A stretch of 64,000 nt of DNA, from assembly GCA_046290225.1 (NCBI GenBank), contig JBKAGE010000076.1:32001-96000 (forward strand). The letters run 5' to 3'. Under the pieces are notes generated by a model, which saw nothing but the letters and a program-made list of their open reading frames with translations, was not told where the DNA came from and searched no databases. Of the stretch, positions 24,997 through 40,326 are shown in pieces (the first letter of the stretch is position 1; each line of letters begins with the position of its first letter). The stretch is from Bradymonadia bacterium. Its GTDB lineage: Bacteria > Myxococcota_A > Bradymonadia > UBA7976 > UBA1532. The translations under genes and the position numbers were made by a program.

Positions 24997-27900
24997 TCAT
25001 CGAGGCAACGCGATCAGGCGGAACCGTTCCCATGCATGATTGCTCGGGCGGTTGGCCACCAACGGCTCACCACCGCCATTCTCTGCGGTGACGAACTGCT
25101 GTGTCGTCGCCGTGCGGAGCGAGATCGTGCCATCGGCGTTGGGCACGAGGTCGAAGCGCTCATGGGACAGAATCCAGCTGCGATCAGCGAGGAGCTGCCC
25201 ACCACCACCGTTCACCGCCCTGACATACTCACCGTCGTGACGCAGCGCGATCTCGAGCCCACCGAGGTTGACGAAGTCGAAGGTGGTCGAGGCGTCGACC
25301 TGCGTCCCGGTGAGGGCGATGCCATTGGGCGTCACCTGCACATAGCGGCCGTCTACCCCCTGAATCGCCACTGGGGTGCCTGCCAGATCGACGAGGGTGA
25401 AGCGGGTGTCCTGGGCCCCTTGCGCCCCATCGGCGACGAGCAGGCCGTCCTCACCATCACGCAGGTGGTGCGCCCCGCCCGTGCTCAGCGCCACGAAGCC
25501 AAAGCCCAGCTCGATCAAGTCGAACTTCTCCCACGACCTGAGCCACCGCGCGTCGCTGTACACCTCACCGTCATCCCCACCTTCGACCCCGACGAAGCGG
25601 CCGTTGGGCAACCGCAAGCCCACCTGTTCTTCACCCACGGACACCATCTGTAGAGGCAACGGTGCGATGGCGTCGGAGATCATGCTGCCGTCGGGATCCT
25701 GCCCGACGAAGAAGCCCTCGGCGGTCTGCAGCGCCACAGGACCTGCGTCGAGGGCCTGCAGCTCGAACATCTCCCAGAAGCCCACATCTGCCTGATAGGC
25801 GAGGATCTCACCGTCCGGGCTGACACCCACGTATCGATCATGGACCGTGCGCAGCGCCACACGGCCGTTCCCCTGAGGCTCCAAGGTGAAGATCTCCCAG
25901 GGGCCGATCCACGGCGTGTGCACAGTGAGTGATCCCCACAGATCATCTTCGGCGGTGATGAAGTGGCCGTTGTCGCCCTTGAAAGCCACCTGATTGTTGC
26001 CGAGCTCGATCATCTCGAAGGTGCTGCTCTCGTCGAGGTAGGGCATATCGGCTTCGGGGTGGTCGCCCCACGAGAACACGGTGGTCTGCCCGATGCCCAT
26101 GTCGATGAGAAACTGCAGGTGCACGTATCGATGGTTTCGGGCCATGAGGGCCACCTTGCGCCCGGAGCGCGACACCGACGCATAGGCCTCGGGGTCGAAC
26201 ATGTTCAGCGCGCCCTGGCCGCCGATGGCCTCACTCACCGAGAGGGTGTGGCCCGCTTCCCCAAAGGGGGCGGCGGACCAGACATCCCGGTCGAAGAAAC
26301 AGAAGTCGTCGAGATCTTCCACAAAGCCTGCGCCAGGGCCCTCACCGACATTGTTGTGGCCCAACCCGCTGAGGGCTCTGCACACCTGCATGCCCGCCGG
26401 GGGCTGGGGCTGATCCGCCGAGCCATAGACCTCGATCTGACGAGAGAGACCACAGCCGTTCACGTGATCCATGAGCCCGCCAGGGACCAGCGCCGAAGGG
26501 GCCGGCAAATGATCGGCGGATCGGTCGAGATACAGCGTGTGGGTCCCCGCGGCGGGATACACCTGGATGTGGTGGCCACCCTGGAAGATCGGATCACTGA
26601 TCGCGAGGTGTGCACACGATGCGTGCGTGCACTCGGCGCCGGAGCCTGCCACCCACCGATGACGATCACCCACCTGAGCGCTCACGAGGGTGAACATCGA
26701 CTGACCCGCATGCTCGGTCCGCCGCACGTGCAGCTTCACAGTGGCCGTGTCGCGCCAGTGCGCAGCTGTGTCCAAGGGCAGGTAGCCACCGTCCTGTTCG
26801 AAGAGCATGAGGTAGCGCAGCTGCACGATCTCACCAGCCTCACCGAGATCTCGAATGGGGCTCACCCGGAGCAGGGTCGCGGGCTCGTGGGGTCGCCGAG
26901 CGTGCTCGTCGCTGTCGAAACGTACGTAGGGGGCGAAGTACTGCCCCAAGGCGTTCTCCACTGCATCGGCGAGGCCGTCGCCATCGGCATCGGCCTGATC
27001 GGCAAAGGCAGGGGGCGTGTACGTCAGGCCTGGGCGCTGCTCGGTCTGGATGACCCTGTACGCGTAGACGTCATCGGTGGCCACCATCGCGATCAGCTCG
27101 TCCTTGCCGTCTTCGTCGATGTCGTACGCCGTGAGCGCCGCCGCTGCGGTGTGCTCGAGGCTGGGGATGTGCCATGTGTCCTCAAAGGCCCCTGCCACAC
27201 CACTGCCGTGCAGCTGATGGCTGATCTTGAGCCTCAGCTCTTCCCGGCCACACGGCGCATCGTTGGCCAGCAACGCCAGCCCGGGCGCCCCGTCGCCGTC
27301 GAAGTCACCGATGGCGATGCCCGCACCGCGGGCTACATCACCGAGACCCGCGATTTCCACCTGATGACCCATCGACCCCGGGGCGCCGAGGGCGCCGAGA
27401 TCTCGAGCCACTCGATACCGGAAGCTGTTGGGCCCGTTGGGGTTGTCGTAGGCCATGACCAGCATCTCGGGACTGCCGTTGCCGTCGAGATCCGCGGTGC
27501 TGATGCCCGCCCCTTGAGCCTCGTTGCCCAGCCCGGGCAGCGTCAGCACGTCGCTCTGATCGAGTGTGTTGAAGAGGCCACCCCCGCTGGTGGCGTAGAC
27601 CTGGTAGCGGAAGCTGTTGGCGCCCTGGGGGTTGTCGTTGGCCATGAAGATCAGCTCGTCATAGCCATCCTGGTTCAGATCGATCAGCTCGACGCCGGCC
27701 CCTTGACCCTGATGCCCGAAGCCGTTCATGACCGTGTGCCAGTCCCAGTCATCCGTGTGCCCGGCATGATCGAGGTTCCACCCGATGCGCACATAGAACT
27801 GATTGGGGCCGCTGTGGGGATCCCCGTTCTCGTCGAGATAGACCACCGCCACGAGATCGGGCCGGGGATCGTCGTCGAGTTGCCCCACGGCCACCCCAGC

Positions 27901-28575
27901 CCCCTGTGGCGTGCCGGAAATCTGCTCGATGGTGTGCCACTGCGTGGTCGTGTAGCACTCGGTCCCGGAGCTGATGGCGCCCGACTGCACCGACCAGCAT
28001 CGCTGAGCGCTCGGGGTCAGGGTGACTTCGGGTGTATAGCTGCACACCTCATCCTCACCGGGGCACCCGGCTTCGGCCCGGGTGACGGTCTTCACGGCCT
28101 GCTCACCGAGATCGGTGGTGACGGTCAGCTGAAAGTCATCGTCACCGATCCCCGACGTCCAGGTATAGGTCGGGCGCGGGCTGGTGGACGCCACCAGGGG
28201 CGAGAGGAGGGTGGGCTCTGAGGCGCCCAGAGAGAACGACATCCACTCGGAGACAGGCCCGTCGCCCATGCCCCAGGGCTTCACCTGCCATTGCCCATCA
28301 CCGGGCACGTCGAAGTCGACGCCCGCCACGGCGCAGATCCTACGCGCCTCGGAGCAGTGGGCACTCGCGGAGAACCACGTGCCCTGGTTGCCATCAGGGT
28401 GCAGGATCGTGAGCCTGTACCAGAGCGCGTCTTCTACATGAGTCCAGACAAAGTTGAGGCGCTCTGGCGCCACCCCCTGATCCCCCATGGGTCCCAGAAG
28501 GGTGGGCGCCTCTTGAGGCTGCGCCATGGCCGCGGCCCCCCAGAGCGTCATCAACGCGAGTGTGGGTTTGAACAT
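24997..28575 (-). CDS. Large secreted multidomain protein: Ig/FN3-like x2, FG-GAP/VCBS repeats, central unknown domain, C-terminal fascin-like beta-trefoil repeats
   Basis: Signal MFKPTLALMTLWGAAAMA after GGAG; DLNQDGYDEL, DLDGNGSPEM, DFDGDGAP, DIDEDGKDEL; repeated ALR/K...G.YV.A..GG...L.A.R..I..WE.F.L. Confidence 0.82.
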   Translation of the reverse strand: MFKPTLALMTLWGAAAMAQPQEAPTLLGPMGDQGVAPERLNFVWTHVEDALWYRLTILHPDGNQGTWFSASAHCSEARRICAVAGVDFDVPGDGQWQVKPWGMGDGPVSEWMSFSLGASEPTLLSPLVASTSPRPTYTWTSGIGDDDFQLTVTTDLGEQAVKTVTRAEAGCPGEDEVCSYTPEVTLTPSAQRCWSVQSGAISSGTECYTTTQWHTIEQISGTPQGAGVAVGQLDDDPRPDLVAVVYLDENGDPHSGPNQFYVRIGWNLDHAGHTDDWDWHTVMNGFGHQGQGAGVELIDLNQDGYDELIFMANDNPQGANSFRYQVYATSGGGLFNTLDQSDVLTLPGLGNEAQGAGISTADLDGNGSPEMLVMAYDNPNGPNSFRYRVARDLGALGAPGSMGHQVEIAGLGDVARGAGIAIGDFDGDGAPGLALLANDAPCGREELRLKISHQLHGSGVAGAFEDTWHIPSLEHTAAAALTAYDIDEDGKDELIAMVATDDVYAYRVIQTEQRPGLTYTPPAFADQADADGDGLADAVENALGQYFAPYVRFDSDEHARRPHEPATLLRVSPIRDLGEAGEIVQLRYLMLFEQDGGYLPLDTAAHWRDTATVKLHVRRTEHAGQSMFTLVSAQVGDRHRWVAGSGAECTHASCAHLAISDPIFQGGHHIQVYPAAGTHTLYLDRSADHLPAPSALVPGGLMDHVNGCGLSRQIEVYGSADQPQPPAGMQVCRALSGLGHNNVGEGPGAGFVEDLDDFCFFDRDVWSAAPFGEAGHTLSVSEAIGGQGALNMFDPEAYASVSRSGRKVALMARNHRYVHLQFLIDMGIGQTTVFSWGDHPEADMPYLDESSTFEMIELGNNQVAFKGDNGHFITAEDDLWGSLTVHTPWIGPWEIFTLEPQGNGRVALRTVHDRYVGVSPDGEILAYQADVGFWEMFELQALDAGPVALQTAEGFFVGQDPDGSMISDAIAPLPLQMVSVGEEQVGLRLPNGRFVGVEGGDDGEVYSDARWLRSWEKFDLIELGFGFVALSTGGAHHLRDGEDGLLVADGAQGAQDTRFTLVDLAGTPVAIQGVDGRYVQVTPNGIALTGTQVDASTTFDFVNLGGLEIALRHDGEYVRAVNGGGGQLLADRSWILSHERFDLVPNADGTISLRTATTQQFVTAENGGGEPLVANRPSNHAWERFRLIALPR

Positions 28576-28810
28576 CTCGGCTTCTCCATCAACGTTGCGG
28601 CCCGAGGGGCCTGATCGCCGATTACAAAGCCGGTGGGGTTTTCTTTCGCCGAGGTGAAAAATCACGAGCGCTTTCATACGCCCAAGTGGGCAACCGCCTC
28701 ATCTACCGTCCTGGTGGCGACGGTCGCAGAGAGCACGAAGCATGGTGTAAGGTCCCGCGCCATCCAGGGTCTAAGTTGAGGACCCCTTGATCAATCGGAA
28801 AGCCACACCG

Positions 28811-31213: not shown

Positions 31214-31443
31214 GGCTTTCTCCTGAATGGCACCCGGCCCATTGCAGTCTTGGGCTCGGGGCAGCGACCACAATCGGGAAAATCATCTCGAAGAATATTC
31301 AACAGAAGGGAAAAGAATCGCTTGGCCCCCCTGTAAACACCCACCAGAGCCCCCTGCCTCTCCTGTATTTATATCTATGGAAATGTAGGGGTCTTGGAAG
31401 CGCGGACAGAAACAGGTAACAGAAGGACTCTCTGGGGAGAGAG

Positions 31444-32310
31444 ATGCAGACCGACGACGCCCTCGATCAACTCATCCGGCAGGCTCTCGCCGAGTCGAAG
31501 CCCGTGGCTGACGCCAACGAGCAGGCGGATGATCACGACCTCGACGACGGGGCGTGGGCACAGTGGGCCCTCGGCACCCTGAGCGACGCCGCACGGGATC
31601 AGGTCGAGGGTCGGCTCGCAGCCGACGCCGAGGCCAGAGCCCTGGCTCAAGCACAGCGCGAGCCCGTGTCGGAAGACCTCGCGCAGTGGGCCCTCGAGCA
31701 ATGGGTCGATGTGCAGAGCGGCGCGTCGTCAAATCAAGCCGGACCTTCGGCACCCGCTGAGCCAGCCCCAACGACGTCGGACACAGACGGCAAGGTGGTC
31801 TCGCTCTGGGGCTGGCGCGCCTGGCCCCTGGCAGCGGCGGCCGCCGTGGCCATCACCGTGGGCAGCGTGCTGTGGTCCACCTCGGGCGTGGTGCCCGGAC
31901 CTCAATACACCGCGGGGCCGCTCATGGGCAGCGCCCGCACCATGCGGTCCGAAGAGCCCGGCACCGGCGTGTTCCTGCCCGACAGCAGGCTACAGGTCGA
32001 TCTCAAACCCCCAGCAGAGCGGGAGACCTTCCCTCAAGTGGTGGTCTACGCGGGGCCCGAGTCAGGGCCCTTCAACCGCATCGACGACGCCAAGATCGTA
32101 CAAGGCTTCGGCGGCGCCCTTCGCCTCAAGGCCCGAGCCGGTGATCTCTTCGCAGATCACTTCGGCCCCAGCCTGCTCGCTGTTTCTCTGGGACCCTGGT
32201 CTCAACCTCCAGCCACGCTCGACGGCCTCGATGACGCCGATCGACGTCAGTGGTTGCGCTTCCCCGTGGACTATCGAAAGACACCGCCCTCAACAGGAGA
32301 GCAGCCATGA
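31444..32310 (+). CDS. Putative single-pass anti-sigma factor (zf-HC2-like N-domain without Zn ligands)
   Basis: AQWALGTLSDAARDQVEGRLAADAEARAL aligns with the anti-sigma pattern .Y..G.L......VE.HL..C..CR; GKVVSL, then TM WPLAAAAAVAITVGSVLW, then a soluble C-domain; same operon as an ECF sigma. Confidence 0.75.
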   Translation: MQTDDALDQLIRQALAESKPVADANEQADDHDLDDGAWAQWALGTLSDAARDQVEGRLAADAEARALAQAQREPVSEDLAQWALEQWVDVQSGASSNQAGPSAPAEPAPTTSDTDGKVVSLWGWRAWPLAAAAAVAITVGSVLWSTSGVVPGPQYTAGPLMGSARTMRSEEPGTGVFLPDSRLQVDLKPPAERETFPQVVVYAGPESGPFNRIDDAKIVQGFGGALRLKARAGDLFADHFGPSLLAVSLGPWSQPPATLDGLDDADRRQWLRFPVDYRKTPPSTGEQP

Positions 32311-35033
32311 GGATGACCTCTCGAAAGACTGGCTTGAAAGCCCTGGCCCTCAGCGCCGCCACCATGTCGCTGATGACCGGATGCCCCATCGGCGAAGCGA
32401 GCGACAGCGCCAGCACAGGCACCACTGACGCCGCGATGCGCGGTGACATCGACCGCCAGGGTGACCCAGCCCGCCGAGGCGACGCTCGACGCCCTGCCCC
32501 CGACGCAGAGCCGGCTCGTGAGCGCGAGCCTGAGCCGCTGCCCGTGGGTGCTGGCCACGTGATTGTCGACGTCGCCCCAGTGTTCACTGATCCAGCAGCT
32601 GACGGGGTGAGGTTCGGCGCCGAGAGCTCACGTGGGCTCGTCGGCGACGGCTGGCGCCGTTACTACGAGGTGCGCTTCCGCCTCGACGACGGCGCCCCCT
32701 CTGACGGCCTGGGCATCCCGGACGACGTGGTGGCCCAGGTGGGCCCCGAGCTTCAGGGCGCCTGCCGCAGCGATCGCTACTTCGTGCACTTCCCAGAGTC
32801 GGACTGGCCCAACGCCCCCTCGGACGGCTTCGAGGAAGCCCTCCGCCGCGGCATGGGGCAACAGGGGTGGTGGTTCACGCCCCCCGAGGAGCCTGATCAT
32901 CGACCCCTCCATGACCGCACATGGTTGCGGGCAGAGAATGAAGCCCAATGTCACGTGGTGGAGGCGATCCGCGAGGCCGCGGCCAGAGCGGAAGAGATCC
33001 GGCCTGATCGGATGGATCGCATCCGCGTGGGCCGCGTCTGCGAGTTCAACGGCATGGGCACCCCGGAGGCCTACTCAGGCCCCATGGTGAGCTGGCACCT
33101 CGAGCGCATGGGCGTCGACGCCGTGCCCGAGCTGCCCAACGTGGGCCCGGTGGTGGATCTATTGCTCTTCGACTCGGGCATCCGCCCAGAGGCCAACATC
33201 CAGGGGGTGGTGGAGCACCCTCCGGTGAGCCTGTTCCCCCTCGCTGATCCGACCTACGACACCCCGGCCCCCCACGGCACCTACATGGCGCAGCTGATGC
33301 GTCAGCTGATCCCTCGGGAGCAGGCCACCATCCACAGCTGGCGGGTGATGGACGAGTTCGGCCGGGGCACCACCCACGATCTGGCCCGCTCGATGTACGA
33401 AGCCCTCGTGCGTCGGGATCGACCGGTGCCGGCGGTGGTGAACCTGAGCCTGGGCTGGCCCGCCGAGCTGAACCGCAAGCGCCAGCTCTACACCCAGGTG
33501 AGCGAAGGCAGCGTGCCCTCCTGCGGCCTCGACGACAACGGCCGCCCCCGCGAGGGTGTGGAGTCGGGGATCGGTGAGGCGGCCCGCTTCATCATCGATC
33601 ACGGCCGTAAGGTCGACGAGGGCCCCCTCGACGTGGCGATCTTCGCCGCTTCGGGGAACCGCCCTGGTCGCGAGGTGGTCACGGATCGCCAGCGCGCCAA
33701 CGATCTCGCCCCCTCGAACGACTACGACGATCCCTGTGCTGTGGGCGAGGCGTTGGAGTCGGCCCCCTGGTCGATGCCTGCAGAGTGGAGCTTCGTCCCC
33801 ACGAGCTGTGAGCCGGGCGTCGACGGCGCCAACGGCACGAGCCACTTCGCCCTCACGGCCGTGGGTGTCTCGGACGGTCTCGAGGGCCAGGGTTTCATGG
33901 CCCGCCCCCACCGCGACGCAGCCCTGGTGGCCCCCGGTGAGCTGGTGGTGGTGGGGGCCGAGACGCCCTCGCCCACGCATGTCTCCGGCAGCTCTGCCTC
34001 CACGGCCCTGGTGAGCGCGGCAGCGGCCCGCTTGCAGATCCGCCGCGCCGCCGAAGGACTGAAAGCCCTCTCCGGCCGCGCGCTGACGCAGCACCTCTAC
34101 CTCACTGGTGTGCCGATGCTGGACGCTGGTGGGGATCGCCTCACGGCCCGCAACCTGGATGTAGAGACGGGCGGCCAGGCCCGCCGCCTCTCGGTCTGCC
34201 GCGCCGAAGCGACGCTGCACTGTCAGGCGGCCTGCCCAGGCTGCCCGAGCGGCCAGGCATGTGGCGAAGCGATGCTCGTCTGCGCCGAGAACTCCGGCAA
34301 CGCCGCCACATCGCCTCTGCCGGGCTTCAACGGCGTGAGCACCACTCCCTTGCGGGTGATCGAGACCTGCGAGGCAACCTGCCTGCAGACCTGCCTGCAG
34401 CACGCAGAGCGTCGGGGCATCAGCTGCCGCACACAGGAGCCGGAGGCGGCGCCGACCTGGGCTCCTGAAGGCATCGACGCGTTTGAGCAGTCAAACCCGG
34501 CCCCGTTTGAAACGCACGATCCTATCGTTTTCGCTGACCCTGCTCTGAACGATTACCTTGCCTTTGAGCTGGACGACGAAGGTCTGCCCATCCCTGATGT
34601 CTACAGCGTAGGGGAGCTTGGGCCTCAGCCGATCATCCCCTTCTGCCCCGACTGCTTCGCCAAGGTGTTCAACCCCATCGATGCGATATCGAACCCTGCG
34701 AACAAACTGTCGATGGATCTATTCATCCAGCCCAACGAACAGTACATCACCAAAACAGGAGAGCCCTCTGTTGCAGTGATGGGGATCACAGCCAAGGTAT
34801 TCCTGCCTTCAGGTGCAATGCACACCGTCGACTTGGAGCCTCCAGCCAACATCGGAGCTTGGTTGCCAGGCCAGGCAGCGGCCGCCTACGAGATTCCTCT
34901 GGGCAACTACTTGGGTGAGCTGAAAGGCACCAAGGTTGTGCTCTACAGCAAGCTGCTTGTCCTCAAGGGTGAGTATGCAGAAAAGACATTCTTTGATGAA
35001 TCCATTGTTTACGTGACAGTGGAAAACCAATGA
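32307..35033 (+). CDS. Subtilisin-like (S8) serine peptidase, lipoprotein
   Basis: Lipobox LMTGC; triad motifs LLFDSGI, PHGTYMA, SGSSASTALVS; VVNLSLG; FAASGN; Cys-rich and PQP..PFCPDC C-terminal region; ATGA overlap with the upstream gene. Confidence 0.85.
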   Translation: MRMTSRKTGLKALALSAATMSLMTGCPIGEASDSASTGTTDAAMRGDIDRQGDPARRGDARRPAPDAEPAREREPEPLPVGAGHVIVDVAPVFTDPAADGVRFGAESSRGLVGDGWRRYYEVRFRLDDGAPSDGLGIPDDVVAQVGPELQGACRSDRYFVHFPESDWPNAPSDGFEEALRRGMGQQGWWFTPPEEPDHRPLHDRTWLRAENEAQCHVVEAIREAAARAEEIRPDRMDRIRVGRVCEFNGMGTPEAYSGPMVSWHLERMGVDAVPELPNVGPVVDLLLFDSGIRPEANIQGVVEHPPVSLFPLADPTYDTPAPHGTYMAQLMRQLIPREQATIHSWRVMDEFGRGTTHDLARSMYEALVRRDRPVPAVVNLSLGWPAELNRKRQLYTQVSEGSVPSCGLDDNGRPREGVESGIGEAARFIIDHGRKVDEGPLDVAIFAASGNRPGREVVTDRQRANDLAPSNDYDDPCAVGEALESAPWSMPAEWSFVPTSCEPGVDGANGTSHFALTAVGVSDGLEGQGFMARPHRDAALVAPGELVVVGAETPSPTHVSGSSASTALVSAAAARLQIRRAAEGLKALSGRALTQHLYLTGVPMLDAGGDRLTARNLDVETGGQARRLSVCRAEATLHCQAACPGCPSGQACGEAMLVCAENSGNAATSPLPGFNGVSTTPLRVIETCEATCLQTCLQHAERRGISCRTQEPEAAPTWAPEGIDAFEQSNPAPFETHDPIVFADPALNDYLAFELDDEGLPIPDVYSVGELGPQPIIPFCPDCFAKVFNPIDAISNPANKLSMDLFIQPNEQYITKTGEPSVAVMGITAKVFLPSGAMHTVDLEPPANIGAWLPGQAAAAYEIPLGNYLGELKGTKVVLYSKLLVLKGEYAEKTFFDESIVYVTVENQ

Positions 35034-35050
35034 GAGACTGAACTCAATCT

Positions 35051-35701
35051 ATGCTCATCATCGCTCTGCTCAGCCTGTGCCTGAGCGTAGCCCTCAAGGC
35101 CAACGCTCAGGATCAAGACAAGCGTCTCATCACCGAGGCGCTGAGCGGAGATCGTACATCGATGCAGCAGATCATTCGACGTCTGCTGCCAGTGATACAG
35201 TCACGGGTACGGGTCTACCTTTCGAGACGTTCGGGACAACGGCTCGGAGGGCAAGACGCAGATGACCTGATTCAGGAAATCTGGTTGGCTCTCATCAAAG
35301 ACGAAGGCCGTGTGCTCATGGCGTATGACCCCGACAGGGGCATGTCACTCGAGGGATACACGGGCCTCATATGCCGCAGGGAGCTGTGGCGCAGGGCTGA
35401 ATCGAGCCAAAGTGAACGCCGGGGGGGCCACTTGAAGCTGGTCGAGCTTGATGAAGCGAGAGACACTCAGAGTCAGGAGAACCCAGAGCAACTTACTGTC
35501 GCTCGCGGAGATCTCAAACGACTCTATACATACCTGATGACCGAGTTGCCACCCAGAGGACAACTGGTATTGATGGCGCTGTATGAGGATGGTCTTTCTG
35601 CCGAACAAGCGGCAGAATTCGTCGGCGTCACCAAACAGGTCATCTACAACTGGCAACACAAAATCCGAAAGCTGTCCCGCGCTTTTCTCGCGCCAACCTA
35701 G
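35051..35701 (+). CDS. ECF-type RNA polymerase sigma factor
   Basis: D.RLI..ALSGD; region 2 DADDLIQEIWLAL..YDPDRG.SL; region 4 LPPRGQLVLMALYEDGLSAEQAAEFVGVTKQVIYNWQHKIRK. Confidence 0.9.
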   Translation: MLIIALLSLCLSVALKANAQDQDKRLITEALSGDRTSMQQIIRRLLPVIQSRVRVYLSRRSGQRLGGQDADDLIQEIWLALIKDEGRVLMAYDPDRGMSLEGYTGLICRRELWRRAESSQSERRGGHLKLVELDEARDTQSQENPEQLTVARGDLKRLYTYLMTELPPRGQLVLMALYEDGLSAEQAAEFVGVTKQVIYNWQHKIRKLSRAFLAPT

Positions 35702-35715
35702 CTCAACTGCACATC

Positions 35716-38355
35716 GTGGTGTGGATGGCGCTGTTCTGTTCCAGCTGCAGCGACACCCCTCCAACATCAAAGCGGTCTACACCACCACCCCAGATCACAG
35801 CCACGCTTCATGGCTTTGCTGATCTTCGACTTCTCTCGAATGGGCGCACAGCCCCTGTCTTCGATACCCAGCACCCTCCCTATGTGCTGACCCAGTCATC
35901 AAACATCGCTCACCTGTGTTTTGAGCCAACCGAGGGACAACGTGATTGCCAACCTGTTTCGATGGTCTCCACTTCAAAGGGCAAAGTTTATCGTCTGGCC
36001 AAAGTATGGGATGAGTCAAAGGGCAAAGAGGGTCAAGGTACTCTCATAGCCCTCAACCCAGGCCAGGATGTTGTCTTTCAAGAAGAAATATTCTGGCATC
36101 CTCCCTCGAAGCCAGACCCAGCCTTCAATGAAAAAGTCGAAGCAGCGCGTGCGCTTCATCGCAAGGGCGAGCATGCTCAATCAGCAGACACATGGCTTGA
36201 GGCTGCCCACATTGCCAAAGAACACAAACAGCCCTTTGCTCAAGCAAGAGCATTGAGGGCAGCAGGCTATGTAGGCTGGTGGGGTCGACAATTTCGTGAT
36301 GCCGAGGGCTGGCTACGAGACGCGCAACAGATATCAACGACGATTGGTGACTGGCGCGGACAAGCACTGGCACATAATTACAGCGCGCTGATTGCCTTGG
36401 ATGTTGGTGACTACCGCACAGTCGCTGAACACATCAAAGACGTCACAGCTGTCCTAGAGCGGTTTCAAAATCTAGACCTTGAGTTTTCGTTCCTTTCCAC
36501 TCGCCTTTGGTTCCTGATCGACATGGGACAGCATCGAGAGGCACTTGCACTCGATGCTCAATTCAGCGGAAACCAGACCTACCGCCGTCATACAATCAAT
36601 AATTCTGCTTGGATTCGCCTGGAGGCAATGGAGAGAGGCGTAATCCCTAAAAACTATGACGAGATCAAATCGCTGCTGTTGGAAAGCCTCGGATACCTGA
36701 AGGCCCAGGATCACCATGCACAAGCAGCCTCGGTAAATACAGGTTTGGCTTGGGTTGCGTTTGCTCAAGGTGATCTTGAATCAGCTTCTCAATACATAGA
36801 TGAGTTCAAAAAACTCACAGCAGACAAGCCAAGTCCTTCTCGCACTTCAATCGACCAAATCGAAGGTGAGCTCGCCCTCGCCCGCAACCAGTACGACCTC
36901 GCCACCACGCGCTTCGAAGTCCTCATCAAGCGCCTCGAAAACAACCCCCGGGCCGGCAGCGCCGATGCCCTCTGGCGCGCATTCGAAGGCCGTGGACGTG
37001 CAGCGTTGGGCAAGGGCGACACCCAAGCAGCCCTCGCGGACTTCCGTCGAGCGCTCCAAGAGGTCGAGCGCCTTGGTCGACGCACCGTCGTCAAAACCGA
37101 CCGGGGGCAATTCTTCGCTGATCGGCGTCCCCTCGTCGAATCCACCATGAAGCTCTTGCTCCAAGAAGGCCGCGCCGCCGAGGCCTTCGAAGTCGCTGAC
37201 GGTGACCGCGCCCGGGTGCTCCGCGCCATGCAGGCGCGTCTGCGCGTCGATCGGCTCACCTCGGCGCAGCGTGCAGAGTGGAGTGATCGACTCGGGCGTT
37301 TCTACACCGCCAGCAACGCCCTCGCCGAGGCTGCGGAGCTCGAAGGCCTCGCAGTGGGCAAGGCCGCTGAAGCCCAGGCCGCCAAGCTCGCGAACCTCAA
37401 ACGCGAGCACGAAGCCGCCTTCGACCAGGCCTTTCATCTGCTCGATGAGGCCGCGCCCATGACCGTGCCCGAAGGCGCCAGCGGAGACGCGGCGTCCAAA
37501 CAGTTGAAGGCAGACGAAGCTCTGTTGGCGATGACACCTCTCGGAGATCAATGGCTGGTCTTCTGGATGCATGGTGGGCAAATCGAACACCAGCAGATCC
37601 CCAAAGACGCAGATCCCGTCGGGCCATGGCGCCAGCGGCTCGCCCAGGACGACATCGCTCACCTCTATATCATCCCCGGAGGCCATCCGAAGGCCTTCGC
37701 GTTGCCGGTGAAGCCCGTCGGCAGCGCACCTCCGCTGCTGCAACACGTGAGCGTGTCGTTCATGCCGTACGCTGGCCTGCTCCAAAACACGCCCACGGCG
37801 AGCGATGGTAGCCCCCTGGTCCTCGCCGACACGCGCAGCGATCTGCCCTATGCCGCGCAATCAGGCGTCGCAGTGGCTCAACGCCTCAAGGGTAAGCTGC
37901 TCAAGGGTCCCGAAGCCCACCGTGAGGCCGTGCTCCCGGCCCTCGGTACAGCAAGTCTGATTCACTTCGAAGGTCACGGGGTGCTCAACCCCGAAGATCC
38001 CTGGGCCGCCCACCTCGCCCTCGCCGAGGGCCAACAGCTGGCCATGCCCGACCTGCTCACCACCCGCCTCGAAGCCCAGCTGGTCGTGCTCAGCGGGTGC
38101 GAGACCGGGACCGACGCGGTGTTGCTCAGAGATGACGTGGTGGGGCTGCCAGAGGCCTTCCTCGCCGCTGGGGCACAGACGGTGCTGGCCACGGATCGCA
38201 AGGTGCCCGACGAGGCCACCGGGCGCTTCATGGCACGCTTCTATGATGCTGGTGGGTCGACACGCCCTGCAGAGGCGCTGAGGCAGGCGTTCCTGGCTTC
38301 AGGCAGTGAGGCCGAAAGCGTGAGGGCCGCCTGGAGGGTGGTGGGGCGCCGGTAG
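35716..38355 (+). CDS. TPR-CHAT domain protein (caspase-like Cys protease)
   Basis: TPR-like helices; AAEAFEVAD..RAR.L; CHAT dyad motifs LIHFEGHG and LVVLSGCETG; GLPEAFLAAGAQTVLAT..V.D, F...FY, AEALRQA, W..W.V.G. Possible lipobox (FCSSC). Start uncertain. Confidence 0.92.
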   Translation: MVWMALFCSSCSDTPPTSKRSTPPPQITATLHGFADLRLLSNGRTAPVFDTQHPPYVLTQSSNIAHLCFEPTEGQRDCQPVSMVSTSKGKVYRLAKVWDESKGKEGQGTLIALNPGQDVVFQEEIFWHPPSKPDPAFNEKVEAARALHRKGEHAQSADTWLEAAHIAKEHKQPFAQARALRAAGYVGWWGRQFRDAEGWLRDAQQISTTIGDWRGQALAHNYSALIALDVGDYRTVAEHIKDVTAVLERFQNLDLEFSFLSTRLWFLIDMGQHREALALDAQFSGNQTYRRHTINNSAWIRLEAMERGVIPKNYDEIKSLLLESLGYLKAQDHHAQAASVNTGLAWVAFAQGDLESASQYIDEFKKLTADKPSPSRTSIDQIEGELALARNQYDLATTRFEVLIKRLENNPRAGSADALWRAFEGRGRAALGKGDTQAALADFRRALQEVERLGRRTVVKTDRGQFFADRRPLVESTMKLLLQEGRAAEAFEVADGDRARVLRAMQARLRVDRLTSAQRAEWSDRLGRFYTASNALAEAAELEGLAVGKAAEAQAAKLANLKREHEAAFDQAFHLLDEAAPMTVPEGASGDAASKQLKADEALLAMTPLGDQWLVFWMHGGQIEHQQIPKDADPVGPWRQRLAQDDIAHLYIIPGGHPKAFALPVKPVGSAPPLLQHVSVSFMPYAGLLQNTPTASDGSPLVLADTRSDLPYAAQSGVAVAQRLKGKLLKGPEAHREAVLPALGTASLIHFEGHGVLNPEDPWAAHLALAEGQQLAMPDLLTTRLEAQLVVLSGCETGTDAVLLRDDVVGLPEAFLAAGAQTVLATDRKVPDEATGRFMARFYDAGGSTRPAEALRQAFLASGSEAESVRAAWRVVGRR

Positions 38356-38359
38356 CAGC

Positions 38360-39103
38360 TCAGCCGTGGTCGTGGCCGTCGTGATCGCCATGATCGTGCT
38401 CACCACCCGCGCCGCCATGATCACCGTGGTCTTGCTCACCACCATGATCGCCGTGATCGTGCTCGCCACCAGCACCACCGTGCTCACCATGCTCGCCGCC
38501 GTGATCACCATGATCGTGACCACCATGGTCGTGGCTCATGCCTGGCTGATGGATGACGAGGCCCACATCTGCCGAGGGTGCGGGGCCCAGACGGATCATG
38601 TGCATGCCCGCGGGGAAGTCGAGCTCCATGACGTGCGCAGCGGCGGGGCATTGCTCAGGTGTGTTCGCGCTCATCTCGGGCGACAACACGTTGCCCTCGG
38701 CGTCGGTGATCTCGATGGGCACCTCGGCGGTGAGCATGAAGATGTACTCGCTCGCCGCCTGAGGGTGGAAGTGCACCATGCCGCCGAAGGTGCCATCGCC
38801 GTTGTCGGCGAGAGTCAGACGGTAGTGAGTGTGAGGCGGGGTGACGTCGGGGGCCTCGTCGCCACCGAGGGTGACGTCGGTGAAGGGGCCGCCTTCCATG
38901 TGATCACAGGCGAGGGCCACCTCGTCGAAGCCCGTGTGGCCACCTTCGCCACCATGCATGTGCTCACCACCGCTGCCGGCAGCGCCACCACCAGCACCCG
39001 CGGTGCCACTGCTGTCACCATCATCATCGTCACAGCCGAAGCCCACGAGGGCGAGGGCCAGCACGAGCGACGTGGGCTTCAGAAAATGACGGGCAATGTA
39101 CAC
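38360..39103 (-). CDS. His-rich lipoprotein, putative metal-binding
   Basis: GAGGAG RBS plus GTG; lipobox VGFGC-DDDD; His/Met/Cys-rich core (ACDHM, PHTHY); C-terminal HDHGDHGG repeats. Confidence 0.8.
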   Translation of the reverse strand: MYIARHFLKPTSLVLALALVGFGCDDDDGDSSGTAGAGGGAAGSGGEHMHGGEGGHTGFDEVALACDHMEGGPFTDVTLGGDEAPDVTPPHTHYRLTLADNGDGTFGGMVHFHPQAASEYIFMLTAEVPIEITDAEGNVLSPEMSANTPEQCPAAAHVMELDFPAGMHMIRLGPAPSADVGLVIHQPGMSHDHGGHDHGDHGGEHGEHGGAGGEHDHGDHGGEQDHGDHGGAGGEHDHGDHDGHDHG

Positions 39104-39291: not shown

Positions 39292-40326
39292 ATGCCCTCC
39301 CCGCTGCACGAGCTTTTGCTCGATTTAGAGGTCCTAAAACAACGGCGGACTGAGTCAGGGAGGTGAGGTGCGAGTGAGGCAGTTGAAAGACCCGCAGGCG
39401 ATACCAAAGTATCGTCGAGGACGCTTTCGGCTGCATCGCGAAGCACATCACCTTTCTGGCGACAGGAGCTGTTGTGTTAGGACCTCTTATTCCGCGACGA
39501 CCTGCGCCTCGGCCCCACTCTGCTTTCTGCCGTAGCCCCCGAGGCGTTGCCCGAATTCGACGATGTCTCCACTGACGAGTCGACCTACACCGATGCTGGG
39601 GTGAGCGAGCTGCGATCGGACCTGACGGTTCGGCTGATGCACCAGGGCCAGCTCGTCGGTGTGCTCGTCGTCGAGGTGCAGCTGAGCGTCAAGGAAGAGA
39701 AACGTGTGTCGTGGCCCTGCTACCACGTGCTGGCGTGGAGGCGGCATCGCGTGCCGGTGGAAGTGCTGGTCTTCACACCCAGTCAGGCGGTGGCGCGCTG
39801 GGCCAGCACGCCGGTCTCTTTGGGTACCACCCTGGAGTATCAGCCCACCATCGTGGGTCCTGACGGCGTACCACGCATAGATGATCCAGCAGTGGCATCC
39901 CAGGTGCCCGAATTGACGCTGATTTCTACGATGGCCCACGGAAACCGTCGCCACAACGAGCCCATCCTCAAGGCCTGCCTCGCAGCCTTGGACGCCCTCG
40001 ACGCGTCGGATGCTCTTCTCTACTATGATGTTCTGTTTGCGCGGTTGAACGCCGCCGCTCGGGAGGTACTGCACACCATGTTCAACAAACACGGGTACGA
40101 GTTTCAGTCCGAATTCGCGATCAACCACATCAAACAACTCGAACAAAGGCTGGCGGAAGGTCAGCTTATCTCTTTGAGACGCACGCAGCTCAAACAAGCT
40201 CAGATCAAATTCGGAGCACTCTCAGAGGACCATCGCGAACGCATCGAGCAGGCTGAGATGCCGCAACTCGAAGTCTGGCTCGAGCATATCCTCTCCGCTG
40301 AGACCGCCGACGCATTGTTGCAGTGA
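39292..40326 (+). pseudogene. Rpn/PD-(D/E)xK-like putative transposase-related gene (DUF4351-like C-terminus) interrupted by a MITE
   Basis: GGAG plus ATG 39292 gives MPSPLHELLLDL. Deleting 39328-39489 continues in frame as FRDDLRLGPTLL..LPEFDD..ELRSDL..VVEVQL...K..SWP.Y..KFGAL..RIEQA....LE.W.E.IL.A. The insert carries in-frame stops (TGA 39364, TAG 39478). Confidence 0.85.
39328..39486. mobile_element. 159-bp MITE (non-autonomous; ends resemble IS5 family, IS1031 group)
   Basis: 19-bp TIRs GAGGTCCTAAAACAACGGC (39328-39346) and GCTGTTGTGTTAGGACCTC (39468-39486), 2 mismatches; TTA direct repeats at 39325-39327 and 39487-39489; no transposase ORF. Confidence 0.9.

Follow-up and report, generated by a model that had tools for sequence, protein, structure and literature searches.

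A predicted split DdvA-type proteolytic switch in a Bradymonadia bacterium: co-variation between a CHAT S1 pocket and one residue of a transmembrane anti-sigma factor

Introduction

When two proteases with export signals are encoded together with a sigma factor and its anti-sigma factor, which of them acts on the anti-sigma factor, and does one protease activate the other? This question is raised by four genes on a stretch of 64,000 nucleotides from a Bradymonadia bacterium (contig JBKAGE010000076.1, positions 32,001 to 96,000), the whole of which is called the window here. On its forward strand lie genes for an anti-sigma factor of 288 amino acids (aa) (31444-32310), an S8 subtilase lipoprotein of 908 aa (32307-35033), an ECF (extracytoplasmic function) sigma factor of 216 aa (35051-35701) and a lipoprotein TPR-CHAT protease of 879 aa (35716-38355). 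The anti-sigma and S8 genes share an ATGA overlap (32307-32310), and gaps of 17 bp and 14 bp separate S8 from sigma and sigma from CHAT. An earlier note on this DNA had described four co-oriented, tightly packed open reading frames (ORFs); the coordinates, the overlap, the gaps and the Pfam matches (Peptidase_S8, E 4e-5; Sigma70_ECF, E 2e-7; CHAT, E 2e-34; TPR weak) agree with that description.

The same note proposed that CHAT and/or S8 cut the anti-sigma factor or each other, in a two-protease cascade modelled on Csx29 and Csx30 of type III-E CRISPR loci. Our data provide strong evidence, from sequence co-variation, that the S1 pocket of CHAT reads residue 168 of the anti-sigma factor, and good but not complete evidence that CHAT cuts at this residue. 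The action of CHAT on the anti-sigma factor is therefore retained from that proposal, and the cascade is not. We favour, as somewhat better than an even chance, a split DdvA-type regulated-proteolysis switch in which CHAT is the site-1 protease and S8 is an output. The S1/P1 link is the new element here, and the cassette as such is moderately novel.

Anti-sigma residue 168 co-varies with the putative S1 pocket of CHAT

The model of the anti-sigma factor comprises helices resembling a class I anti-sigma domain (ASD) at residues 4-71, a transmembrane (TM) helix at about residues 128-144 (31825-31875, forward strand) and a periplasmic immunoglobulin (Ig)-like beta-sandwich at residues 150-282 (predicted local distance difference test score, pLDDT, 78.6). 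The ectodomain family opens with the motif G-x5-R-(G/S/A), which is G162-x5-R168-S169 in the window. Arg168 (31945-31947, forward strand), the predicted P1 residue of a CHAT site, is placed by the model in a coil close to where the ectodomain begins (pLDDT ~70). Residue counts here and below were all made after de-duplication at 97% identity. Residue 168 was Arg in 54/59 anti-sigma factors. Among 95 non-redundant homologues it was Arg in 84, Lys in 4, Leu in 2, Met in 2, Gln in 1, Val in 1 and a gap in 1, and among 148 distant representatives drawn from 2126 clusters it was Arg in 134, Lys in 7 and Met in 5. The residue that follows Arg was Gly, Ser or Ala in 125 of the 134 distant representatives, and the median distance from the site to the TM segment was 22 residues.

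The His/Cys dyad of CHAT, which the earlier note had found intact, is H754/C795 and is conserved in 96/96% of 47 homologues. The sole PDB match of the CHAT domain was DdvA (8rot, E 1.3e-9), with the dyads aligned. A lipobox Cys11 is conserved in 85% of the 47 homologues, 25 of which fit a strict lipoprotein pattern, and CHAT is predicted to be an extracytoplasmic lipoprotein. The signal of the window CHAT is very short, with 11 aa from a GTG start, so the true start may lie a few codons upstream. The suggestion that this protease works outside the cytoplasm was thus supported by the predicted lipobox; the view that such a location is unusual for a caspase-like enzyme was not, given the precedent of DdvA (PMC11506125). 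CHAT and the anti-sigma factor were separate ORFs in all loci mapped.

The predicted S1-pocket positions of the window CHAT are A713, S716, E752 and D832, and pocket and P1 residue were compared in 68 CHAT/anti-sigma pairs. In the 58 Arg-type pairs, residues 716/752/832 were E/A/D in 49, E/S/D in 3, D/A/D in 2, E/A/E in 1, S/E/D in 1 (the window) and A/S/D in 2. S716 and E752 of the window (37861-37971, forward strand) represent a compensatory swap of the usual E716/A752, by which the acidic S1 residue changes place. The four Lys pairs (A/D/D, A/D/V twice and T/D/D) lost the acid at 716 and gained Asp752. The canonical pocket was lost in the three CHATs of Leu loci (A/S/A, G/V/E and V/V/E) and in the two CHATs of Met loci (A/A/D and D/G/A). 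Two or more acids were present at the pocket in 58/62 pairs with a basic P1 residue versus 1/6 with a non-basic one, although kin in this sample are not independent. When 63 conserved CHAT columns were scanned without bias, co-variation was strongest at 716, 752, 713, 234 and 832, and in the reverse scan of 22 anti-sigma columns residue 168 ranked first. Residue 168 was Arg in 55/56 loci with a canonical pocket and was not Arg in 8/10 other loci. On a CHAT tree the P1 label changed 6 times, and the pocket changed in 5 of these.

By motif register, the putative pocket positions match S1 residues described for clan CD proteases. Aligning the HxxGHG motifs pairs 713 with Cys92, 716 with Asp95 and 752 with Ser156 of TbMCA2, and puts 832 in the L5 region with MALT1 Glu500, at about the position of separase D2151. 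Published S1 residues in this clan are Cys92 and Asp95 (alpha1) with Ser156 (L3) in TbMCA2, and Asp365 and Glu500 in MALT1 (PMC4357240); separase D2151 binds the P1 Arg, and a Lys occupies that place in the Leu-cutting Craspase (PMC9729208). The acidic pattern mapped by sequence register, E716/D832 in the family and E752/D832 in the window, is consistent with both sources. The residue corresponding to the metacaspase L4 Asp is not acidic in these CHATs, and a search for the alpha1 pocket residue of DdvA returned only DARPin noise.

Since residue 168 and the CHAT S1 pocket switch together, CHAT probably takes Arg168 as its P1 residue and acts as the site-1 protease. Several points weigh against this reading. 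The S1 mapping is based on motif register and not on structural superposition. The CHAT tree came from a quick search and has many weak forks, its well-supported branches force only 2 changes to a non-basic label, and the four Lys loci form one clade. Locus L073 has Gln at 168 yet a canonical pocket (E/T/D), with an Arg three residues upstream, whereas the second CHAT of L057 and that of L190 have an Arg partner but an A/S/D pocket. The Leu partner in L015, an atypical protein of 613 aa, has no ECF match beside it. Anti-sigma/sigma pairs without a nearby CHAT made up 10/49 and 15/40 of the loci surveyed below, so cleavage there would need to act in trans. The cleavage sites published for CHAT proteases are Leu or Met, not Arg (10.1101/2021.06.07.447441), and for DdvA the CHAT-based site-1 step is proposed and unproven, its CHAT activity not having been demonstrated (PMC11506125).

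Co-variation alone also fits a substrate and a bound pseudo-substrate equally. As a pseudo-substrate, Arg168 would occupy the S1 pocket as an inhibitor or tether in a resting complex of protease and anti-sigma factor; a signal would dissociate this complex, leaving the anti-sigma factor exposed to other proteases and CHAT free for other targets. Docking of this kind would yield the same S1/P1 co-variation. It has a parallel in the prodomain of the gingipain RgpB, in which Arg126 lies in the S1 pocket (PMC4357240), and in the resting CHAT of DdvA, which shields its TM helix from RseP (PMC11506125). We nevertheless consider it unlikely. A small residue after Arg is what a scissile bond would lead one to expect, almost all homologues retain the CHAT dyad, and the site is placed where a site-1 cut would remove a bulky domain.

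In the favoured switch, the ECF sigma factor would be held at the membrane by the single-pass anti-sigma factor, whose periplasmic Ig-like domain would block a site-2 protease. Sensing and the site-1 cut would both fall to the exported TPR-CHAT lipoprotein. When its TPR region binds a ligand, probably a protein, His754 and Cys795 of the dyad would come into line; Arg168 would enter the S1 pocket (713/716/752/832), and the chain would be cut at R168-S169, some 22 residues out from the membrane. The TM helix would then be cut by an M50 protease of the RseP type, which would free the sigma factor; M50 protease genes are present in the source genome. From AAAAGA-N16/17-GTA promoters the freed sigma factor may transcribe S8, the operon that encodes it and some 15-20 further genes, whose uncharacterised products are mostly exported. 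The S8 lipoprotein would be an induced output or feedback protease and not the activator. Conservation, export signals, intact active sites and the S1/P1 co-variation are the elements of this scheme that are read directly from the sequences.

Conservation of the cassette and its paralogues

The earlier note had proposed a survey of gene neighbourhoods in Myxococcota, and this survey found the four genes together. All four occurred in 15/26 S8 loci from relatives, the rest being mostly short contigs or loci near contig ends. Among 49 sigma loci from a genome collection, 30 had all four genes, 2 had a C14 caspase replacing S8, 3 lacked a second protease, 10 had only anti-sigma and sigma, and 4 had other subsets. 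Forty further anti-sigma-centred regions comprised 15 with all four genes, 15 with only anti-sigma and sigma, 6 without S8, 3 with C14 and 1 without a sigma match. The three sets overlap. Because all four genes occurred together in 15/26 S8 loci and 30/49 sigma loci, we regard their co-occurrence as above chance. Gene order within the cassette was freely shuffled between loci, and the anti-sigma gene adjoined the sigma gene in 46/49 sigma loci. Distance matrices from 31 loci were correlated for anti-sigma and CHAT (rho 0.54) and for S8 and CHAT (0.52), with shuffle maxima near 0.27, and the value for CHAT and sigma (0.25) was not above its own shuffles.

The source genome (8.6 Mb, 99% complete) has 11 CHAT matches and holds both Arg-type and Leu-type cassettes. 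Complete four-gene cassettes are on contigs C76 (the window), C38 and C35. A paralogous cassette on C78 has an anti-sigma factor, a sigma factor, two CHATs and a C14 caspase lipoprotein. Among the partial cassettes, those of C37 and C73 have S8 and CHAT, that of C68 has two CHATs with sigma and anti-sigma, and that of C55 has sigma and anti-sigma. S8 was present in 14/24 genomes of the same family and 0/16 more distant genomes; in a second set the S8 family was found in 11/14 same-family genomes and 0/286 other genomes of the phylum, with at most 3 candidates scored per genome. The cassette also occurs in records named Archangium, Polyangiales and Deltaproteobacteria, and the named relatives that carry it are Myxococcota-type metagenome-assembled genome records. 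Its distribution outside the family is patchy.

The S8 protease

The S8 protein has a lipobox Cys26, a prodomain, the residues D289/H323/N451/S563 and a Cys-rich C-terminal part with a GPQP-CPxC motif. Across 47 homologues the conservation of these four residues is 100/100/100/98%, and the model (predicted TM-score 0.88) matches the subtilisin/proteinase K fold (E 5e-10). S8 is a subtilase with an Asp/His/Ser triad and an oxyanion Asn on a subtilisin fold, and the intact triad reported earlier holds. A strict lipoprotein pattern was found in 18/47 homologues, and most others looked Sec- or lipoprotein-type by eye.

A cascade would require one protease to act on the other: CHAT would activate the S8 zymogen, or S8 would activate CHAT or make its ligand, and the downstream enzyme would cut the anti-sigma factor. 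S8 and CHAT do travel together, even without a neighbouring ECF gene (C37 and C73), their distance matrices are correlated well beyond shuffles, a C14 caspase lipoprotein swaps for S8 in some loci, and SAVED-CHAT, which activates the second protease PCaspase, provides a precedent (10.1101/2023.06.23.546230). However, in 52 S8 sequences none of 11 Arg-rich columns switched with the CHAT pocket. R243, a candidate CHAT site, was rejected because it stays Arg in all Lys, Leu, Met and Gln loci. The co-variation points straight from CHAT to the anti-sigma factor. S8 is also missing from some loci with CHAT, anti-sigma and ECF genes (3/49 and 6/40) and replaced by a C14 caspase lipoprotein in others (2/49 sigma loci and 3/40 anti-sigma-centred regions). 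A copy of the candidate promoter described below lies ahead of S8 itself in 6/20 motif-bearing upstream regions and in the paralogue on C38. Since no S8 arginine column tracks the CHAT pocket and S8 is a replaceable member, a cascade from CHAT to S8 is unsupported; the column test bears on this direction and not on a step from S8 to CHAT. We consider a cascade in either direction improbable, and the earlier claim of one is unsupported. Being replaceable and often having its own candidate promoter, S8 looks like an output.

The converse assignment, in which S8 is the site-1 protease of the anti-sigma factor and TPR-CHAT belongs to the regulon output, would agree with the conservation of subtilases beside TM zinc anti-sigma factors in ECF26 and ECF33 (PMC7826278 supplement) and with the anti-sigma gene often abutting S8. 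It leaves the co-variation of the anti-sigma P1 residue with the CHAT S1 pocket unexplained and gives the central role to the replaceable member, and we hold it to be very improbable.

In the C78 cassette the protein in the place of S8 (C78:360875-362812; L012:5876-7810) is a C14 caspase lipoprotein (Pfam E 7e-20) whose closest solved relatives are metacaspases. The second TPR-CHAT of this cassette is of Sec type.

The anti-sigma factor and the sigma factor

The window sigma factor is paired with a predicted single-pass anti-sigma factor bearing a class I ASD. The TM helix is Ala-rich, with a basic residue at 125 conserved in 88%, and a hydrophobic 18-mer was found in 90/93 homologues. The family profile matched PDB 3hug_B, which we take to be the anti-sigma factor RslA (E 8e-5), and ChrR (3e-4); its match to the N-terminal domain of DdvA was weak (E 0.6). 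The NCBIfam model NF052375 matched below its cut-off (E 3e-6). The TM helix, the ASD-like helices and the profile matches to known anti-sigma factors bear out the single-pass anti-sigma-like protein recognised earlier. Pfam zf-HC2 matched 15/55 homologues and not the window copy, in which the zinc ligands are lost; CxxC is present in 30/95 homologues. DUF4384 was found by Pfam in 0/55 anti-sigma factors, though it is present in Atlas clusters near one atypical paralogue. The anti-sigma alignment gave 7 matches in a word-index search, which had low sensitivity.

The ectodomain family comprises 2126 clusters at 50% identity and has no matching Pfam family. Fold searches with the ectodomain gave generic Ig-like folds only (best Z 7.8), sequence searches of the PDB gave no match, and the literature searches made found no description of the family. 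The atypical 613-aa protein (C37:189281-191122; L015:13282-15120) ends in a TM and Ig-like module with Leu-Gly at the site. It has a long unclassified N-terminal part and adjoins an S8 and a CHAT with an acid-less pocket, in a locus without an ECF match. The cleavable TM and Ig-like module may be reused there on another cytoplasmic regulator.

The sigma factor begins with a hydrophobic extension of about residues 1-15 (35051-35095, forward strand). In all 20 sigma factors picked, 12-18 hydrophobic residues stood ahead of the conserved core. The tail was present in 34/54 non-redundant sigma factors, with a bimodal score and a clear gap, and in 26/59 scorable database homologues, 17 more being too short to score. 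It often begins at a stop/start overlap, and in the window its start is the only canonical start upstream of the conserved D23. The tail is absent from the Archangium, Polyangiales and Sandaracinaceae records and from many divergent paralogues in this family. No positive-inside charge bias was found around it, and a role as a membrane tether is a guess. N-terminal extensions are rare in ECF sigma factors, BldN being a well-described case (bioRxiv 2019.12.11.873521), and multi-TM fusions occur in ECF36 (PMC8999054); a literature search for such a short hydrophobic ECF tail returned nothing specific. The best NCBIfam matches of the sigma factor were under their cut-offs, except for the generic TIGR02937.

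The candidate promoter and regulon

A candidate ECF promoter lies at 31311-31335 (forward strand), with a -35 element AAAAGA, a 16-nt spacer and a -10 element GTA. The pattern AAAG[AG]-N16/17-GTA occurred in 20/83 upstream regions versus a mean of 0.21 in 200 shuffles. The spacer was 16 nt in 9 regions and 17 nt in 12, with one region over all other spacers from 10 to 23. In the source genome the strict form occurred 21 times with spacer 16 and 13 times with spacer 17, versus 2-10 times at each of nine other spacers, and strict sites on C38 precede the S8 and anti-sigma genes. A genome-wide excess was also seen in the relatives G002, G017 and G024. These results have to be set against four others: the pattern was read by eye from regions later used for its count, it occurred in just 1/43 held-out regions, several cassette-bearing relatives had no genome-wide excess, and two of them (G015 and G021) had 0 sites. 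From the held-out count and the mixed relatives, the promoter is plausible for this subfamily and not for all paralogues. When expectation maximisation was used to seek motifs in the upstream regions, it recovered GC-rich background alone.

Of the genes that follow the motif, 15/22 look exported (versus a background of 30%, binomial p 3e-4; 7/16 in a wrong-spacer control); a looser first export heuristic was uninformative (9/19 versus 40%). Among 20 candidate targets picked from the 34 sites, 14 had no Pfam family; a further S8, a protein with RCC1 repeats and a beta-barrel are among the rest. R-G motifs were not enriched in the candidate target proteins. A strong copy of the candidate promoter precedes each of two exported proteins that look alike, are about 780 aa long and have no Pfam family (C1:110481-112838 and C17:242-2581; L126 and L129), and a second, unrelated-looking exported S8 of 1287 aa (C40:4786-8649; L135) lies behind a strong candidate promoter. 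In six divergent intergenic regions (L055, L057, L090, L115, L123 and L124) the -35 element lies, on both strands, within a palindrome of a T-run and an A-run, so that S8 and the opposite side (anti-sigma or CHAT) each have a candidate promoter, back to back.

Comparison with known systems

The closest known system is DdvA/DdvS of Myxococcus xanthus (PMC6061681, PMC11506125; PDB 8rot, 8rw5, 8rlz). It shares with the window an ECF sigma factor, a single-pass anti-sigma factor with a class I ASD, a periplasmic TPR-CHAT with a His/Cys dyad, and a proposed site-1 cut followed by RseP. In DdvA, anti-sigma and TPR-CHAT are one polypeptide, whereas the window TPR-CHAT is a separate lipoprotein. The window anti-sigma factor, unlike DdvA, has a small Ig-like domain at its end that bears a defined Arg site, and an S8 or C14 protease is co-encoded. 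The window motif differs from the DdvS promoter, GTAA-n16-CGT.

In ECF54, a subtilase and a TPR-CHAT likewise lie in the sigma neighbourhood, and proteolytic regulation was proposed and untested (PMC8999054; PMC7826278 supplement). According to these sources ECF54 is 100% actinobacterial, has no recognised anti-sigma factor, has a carboxypeptidase-regulatory-like gene at +1 and uses a GTATCAG/CTCC promoter, whereas the window unit is in Myxococcota and has a TM anti-sigma factor, exported proteases and a different motif. The window unit is a split form of DdvA/DdvS, neither DdvA-type in architecture nor ECF54. This comparison of ECF groups covers part of the PMC7826278 supplement, and another ECF group with the same context is possible.

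Type III-E Craspase also has a TPR-CHAT with a separate anti-sigma factor, a site near the start of a beta-rich C-terminal domain and a sigma factor that is ECF-like. The cut in Csx30 falls in a hairpin close to where that domain begins, P1 is its main determinant, and the sigma factor, CASP-sigma, is released (PMC10028731; 10.1101/2022.08.17.504292). Craspase, however, is a cytoplasmic, RNA-guided enzyme that depends on Cas7-11 and cleaves after Met or Leu (PMC10028731; 10.1101/2022.08.17.504292; PMC9729208), whereas the window CHAT has a lipobox. The source genome had no cas1 and, by a crude scan for repeats, no CRISPR array; no search was made for Cas7-11 itself. The unit is CRISPR-independent, as the earlier note had it, but its Csx29/Csx30 model gives way to DdvA/DdvS as the closer one. 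In the SAVED-CHAT/PCaspase/PCc-sigma system of Haliangium ochraceum, too, a CHAT from Myxococcota has a sigma factor and a second protease as neighbours, along with a SAVED sensor activated by cyclic tri-adenylate (cA3) in a type III-B locus; the window unit has no sign of CHAT cutting the second protease. PMC8195603 and 10.1101/2025.11.14.688446 describe other caspase/ECF and protease/effector modules and not the window unit. A separate exported TPR-CHAT with a TM anti-sigma factor and an S8 in Myxococcota was not found in the literature covered, which mostly excludes subscription papers.

DdvS controls an island of CRISPR and the cyclic oligonucleotide-based antiphage signalling system (CBASS) (PMC11506125), and bacterial CHAT proteases are often immune-linked (10.1101/2023.06.23.546230; 10.1101/2021.06.07.447441). 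Regardless of the order in which cleavage happens, the window unit could likewise serve as a switch for anti-phage or contact defence. However, no linked CBASS/CRISPR island was found, given the absence of cas1 and an array, PADLOC gave 0 matches for the four cassette proteins, and the candidate targets are exported, mostly without a Pfam family and include no recognisable defence genes. A defence role is rather doubtful on these grounds.

A wider interpretation is offered tentatively, as possible and short of probable. The cassettes may form a family of periplasmic caspase-like relays with a specificity code and insulated paralogues, in a subclade of which a tethered, pro-sigma-style sigma factor would serve an exported regulon for contact, predation or competition. 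If so, four S1-pocket positions would dictate a cut after Arg, Lys, Leu or Met, and paralogous cassettes in one cell would be kept insulated. In the DdvA work the site-1 role of a periplasmic caspase-like protease was proposed and not demonstrated because neither the signal nor the cut site was known (PMC11506125). In the split DdvA-type switch favoured here, enzyme and substrate are separate and natural variation names the scissile and pocket residues, so the site-1 idea can be tested without knowing the signal. The S1/P1 code may also predict the specificities of other bacterial CHAT proteases and may give orthogonal protease/substrate pairs.

Flanking genes and composition

The cassette is flanked upstream by a glycosyltransferase-like gene and downstream, on the opposite strand, by a gene for a His-rich lipoprotein; neither showed up as a conserved member of the unit. 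The lipoprotein gene (38360-39103, reverse strand) is convergent on the cassette, and its product has a His-rich repeat tail and a weak match to ZrgA (E 0.03). It probably binds metal and is probably unrelated to the cassette. Similar stand-alone genes, which we take to be Rpn/PD-(D/E)xK transposase-like, lie near the 3' ends of the C76 and C38 cassettes (39547-40326, forward strand, and C38:284387-285010). The GC content is ~59% over 34500-37000, which covers the S8 C-terminus, the sigma factor and the TPR part of TPR-CHAT, versus 65% for the whole window, and GC at third codon positions is near 0.5 in the CHAT paralogues on C73 and C68. These values may reflect exchange or fast divergence of sensor parts. 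Elsewhere in the window, 24997-28677 on the reverse strand encodes an exported protein of 1226 aa with FG-GAP repeats and several fascin-like beta-trefoil domains.

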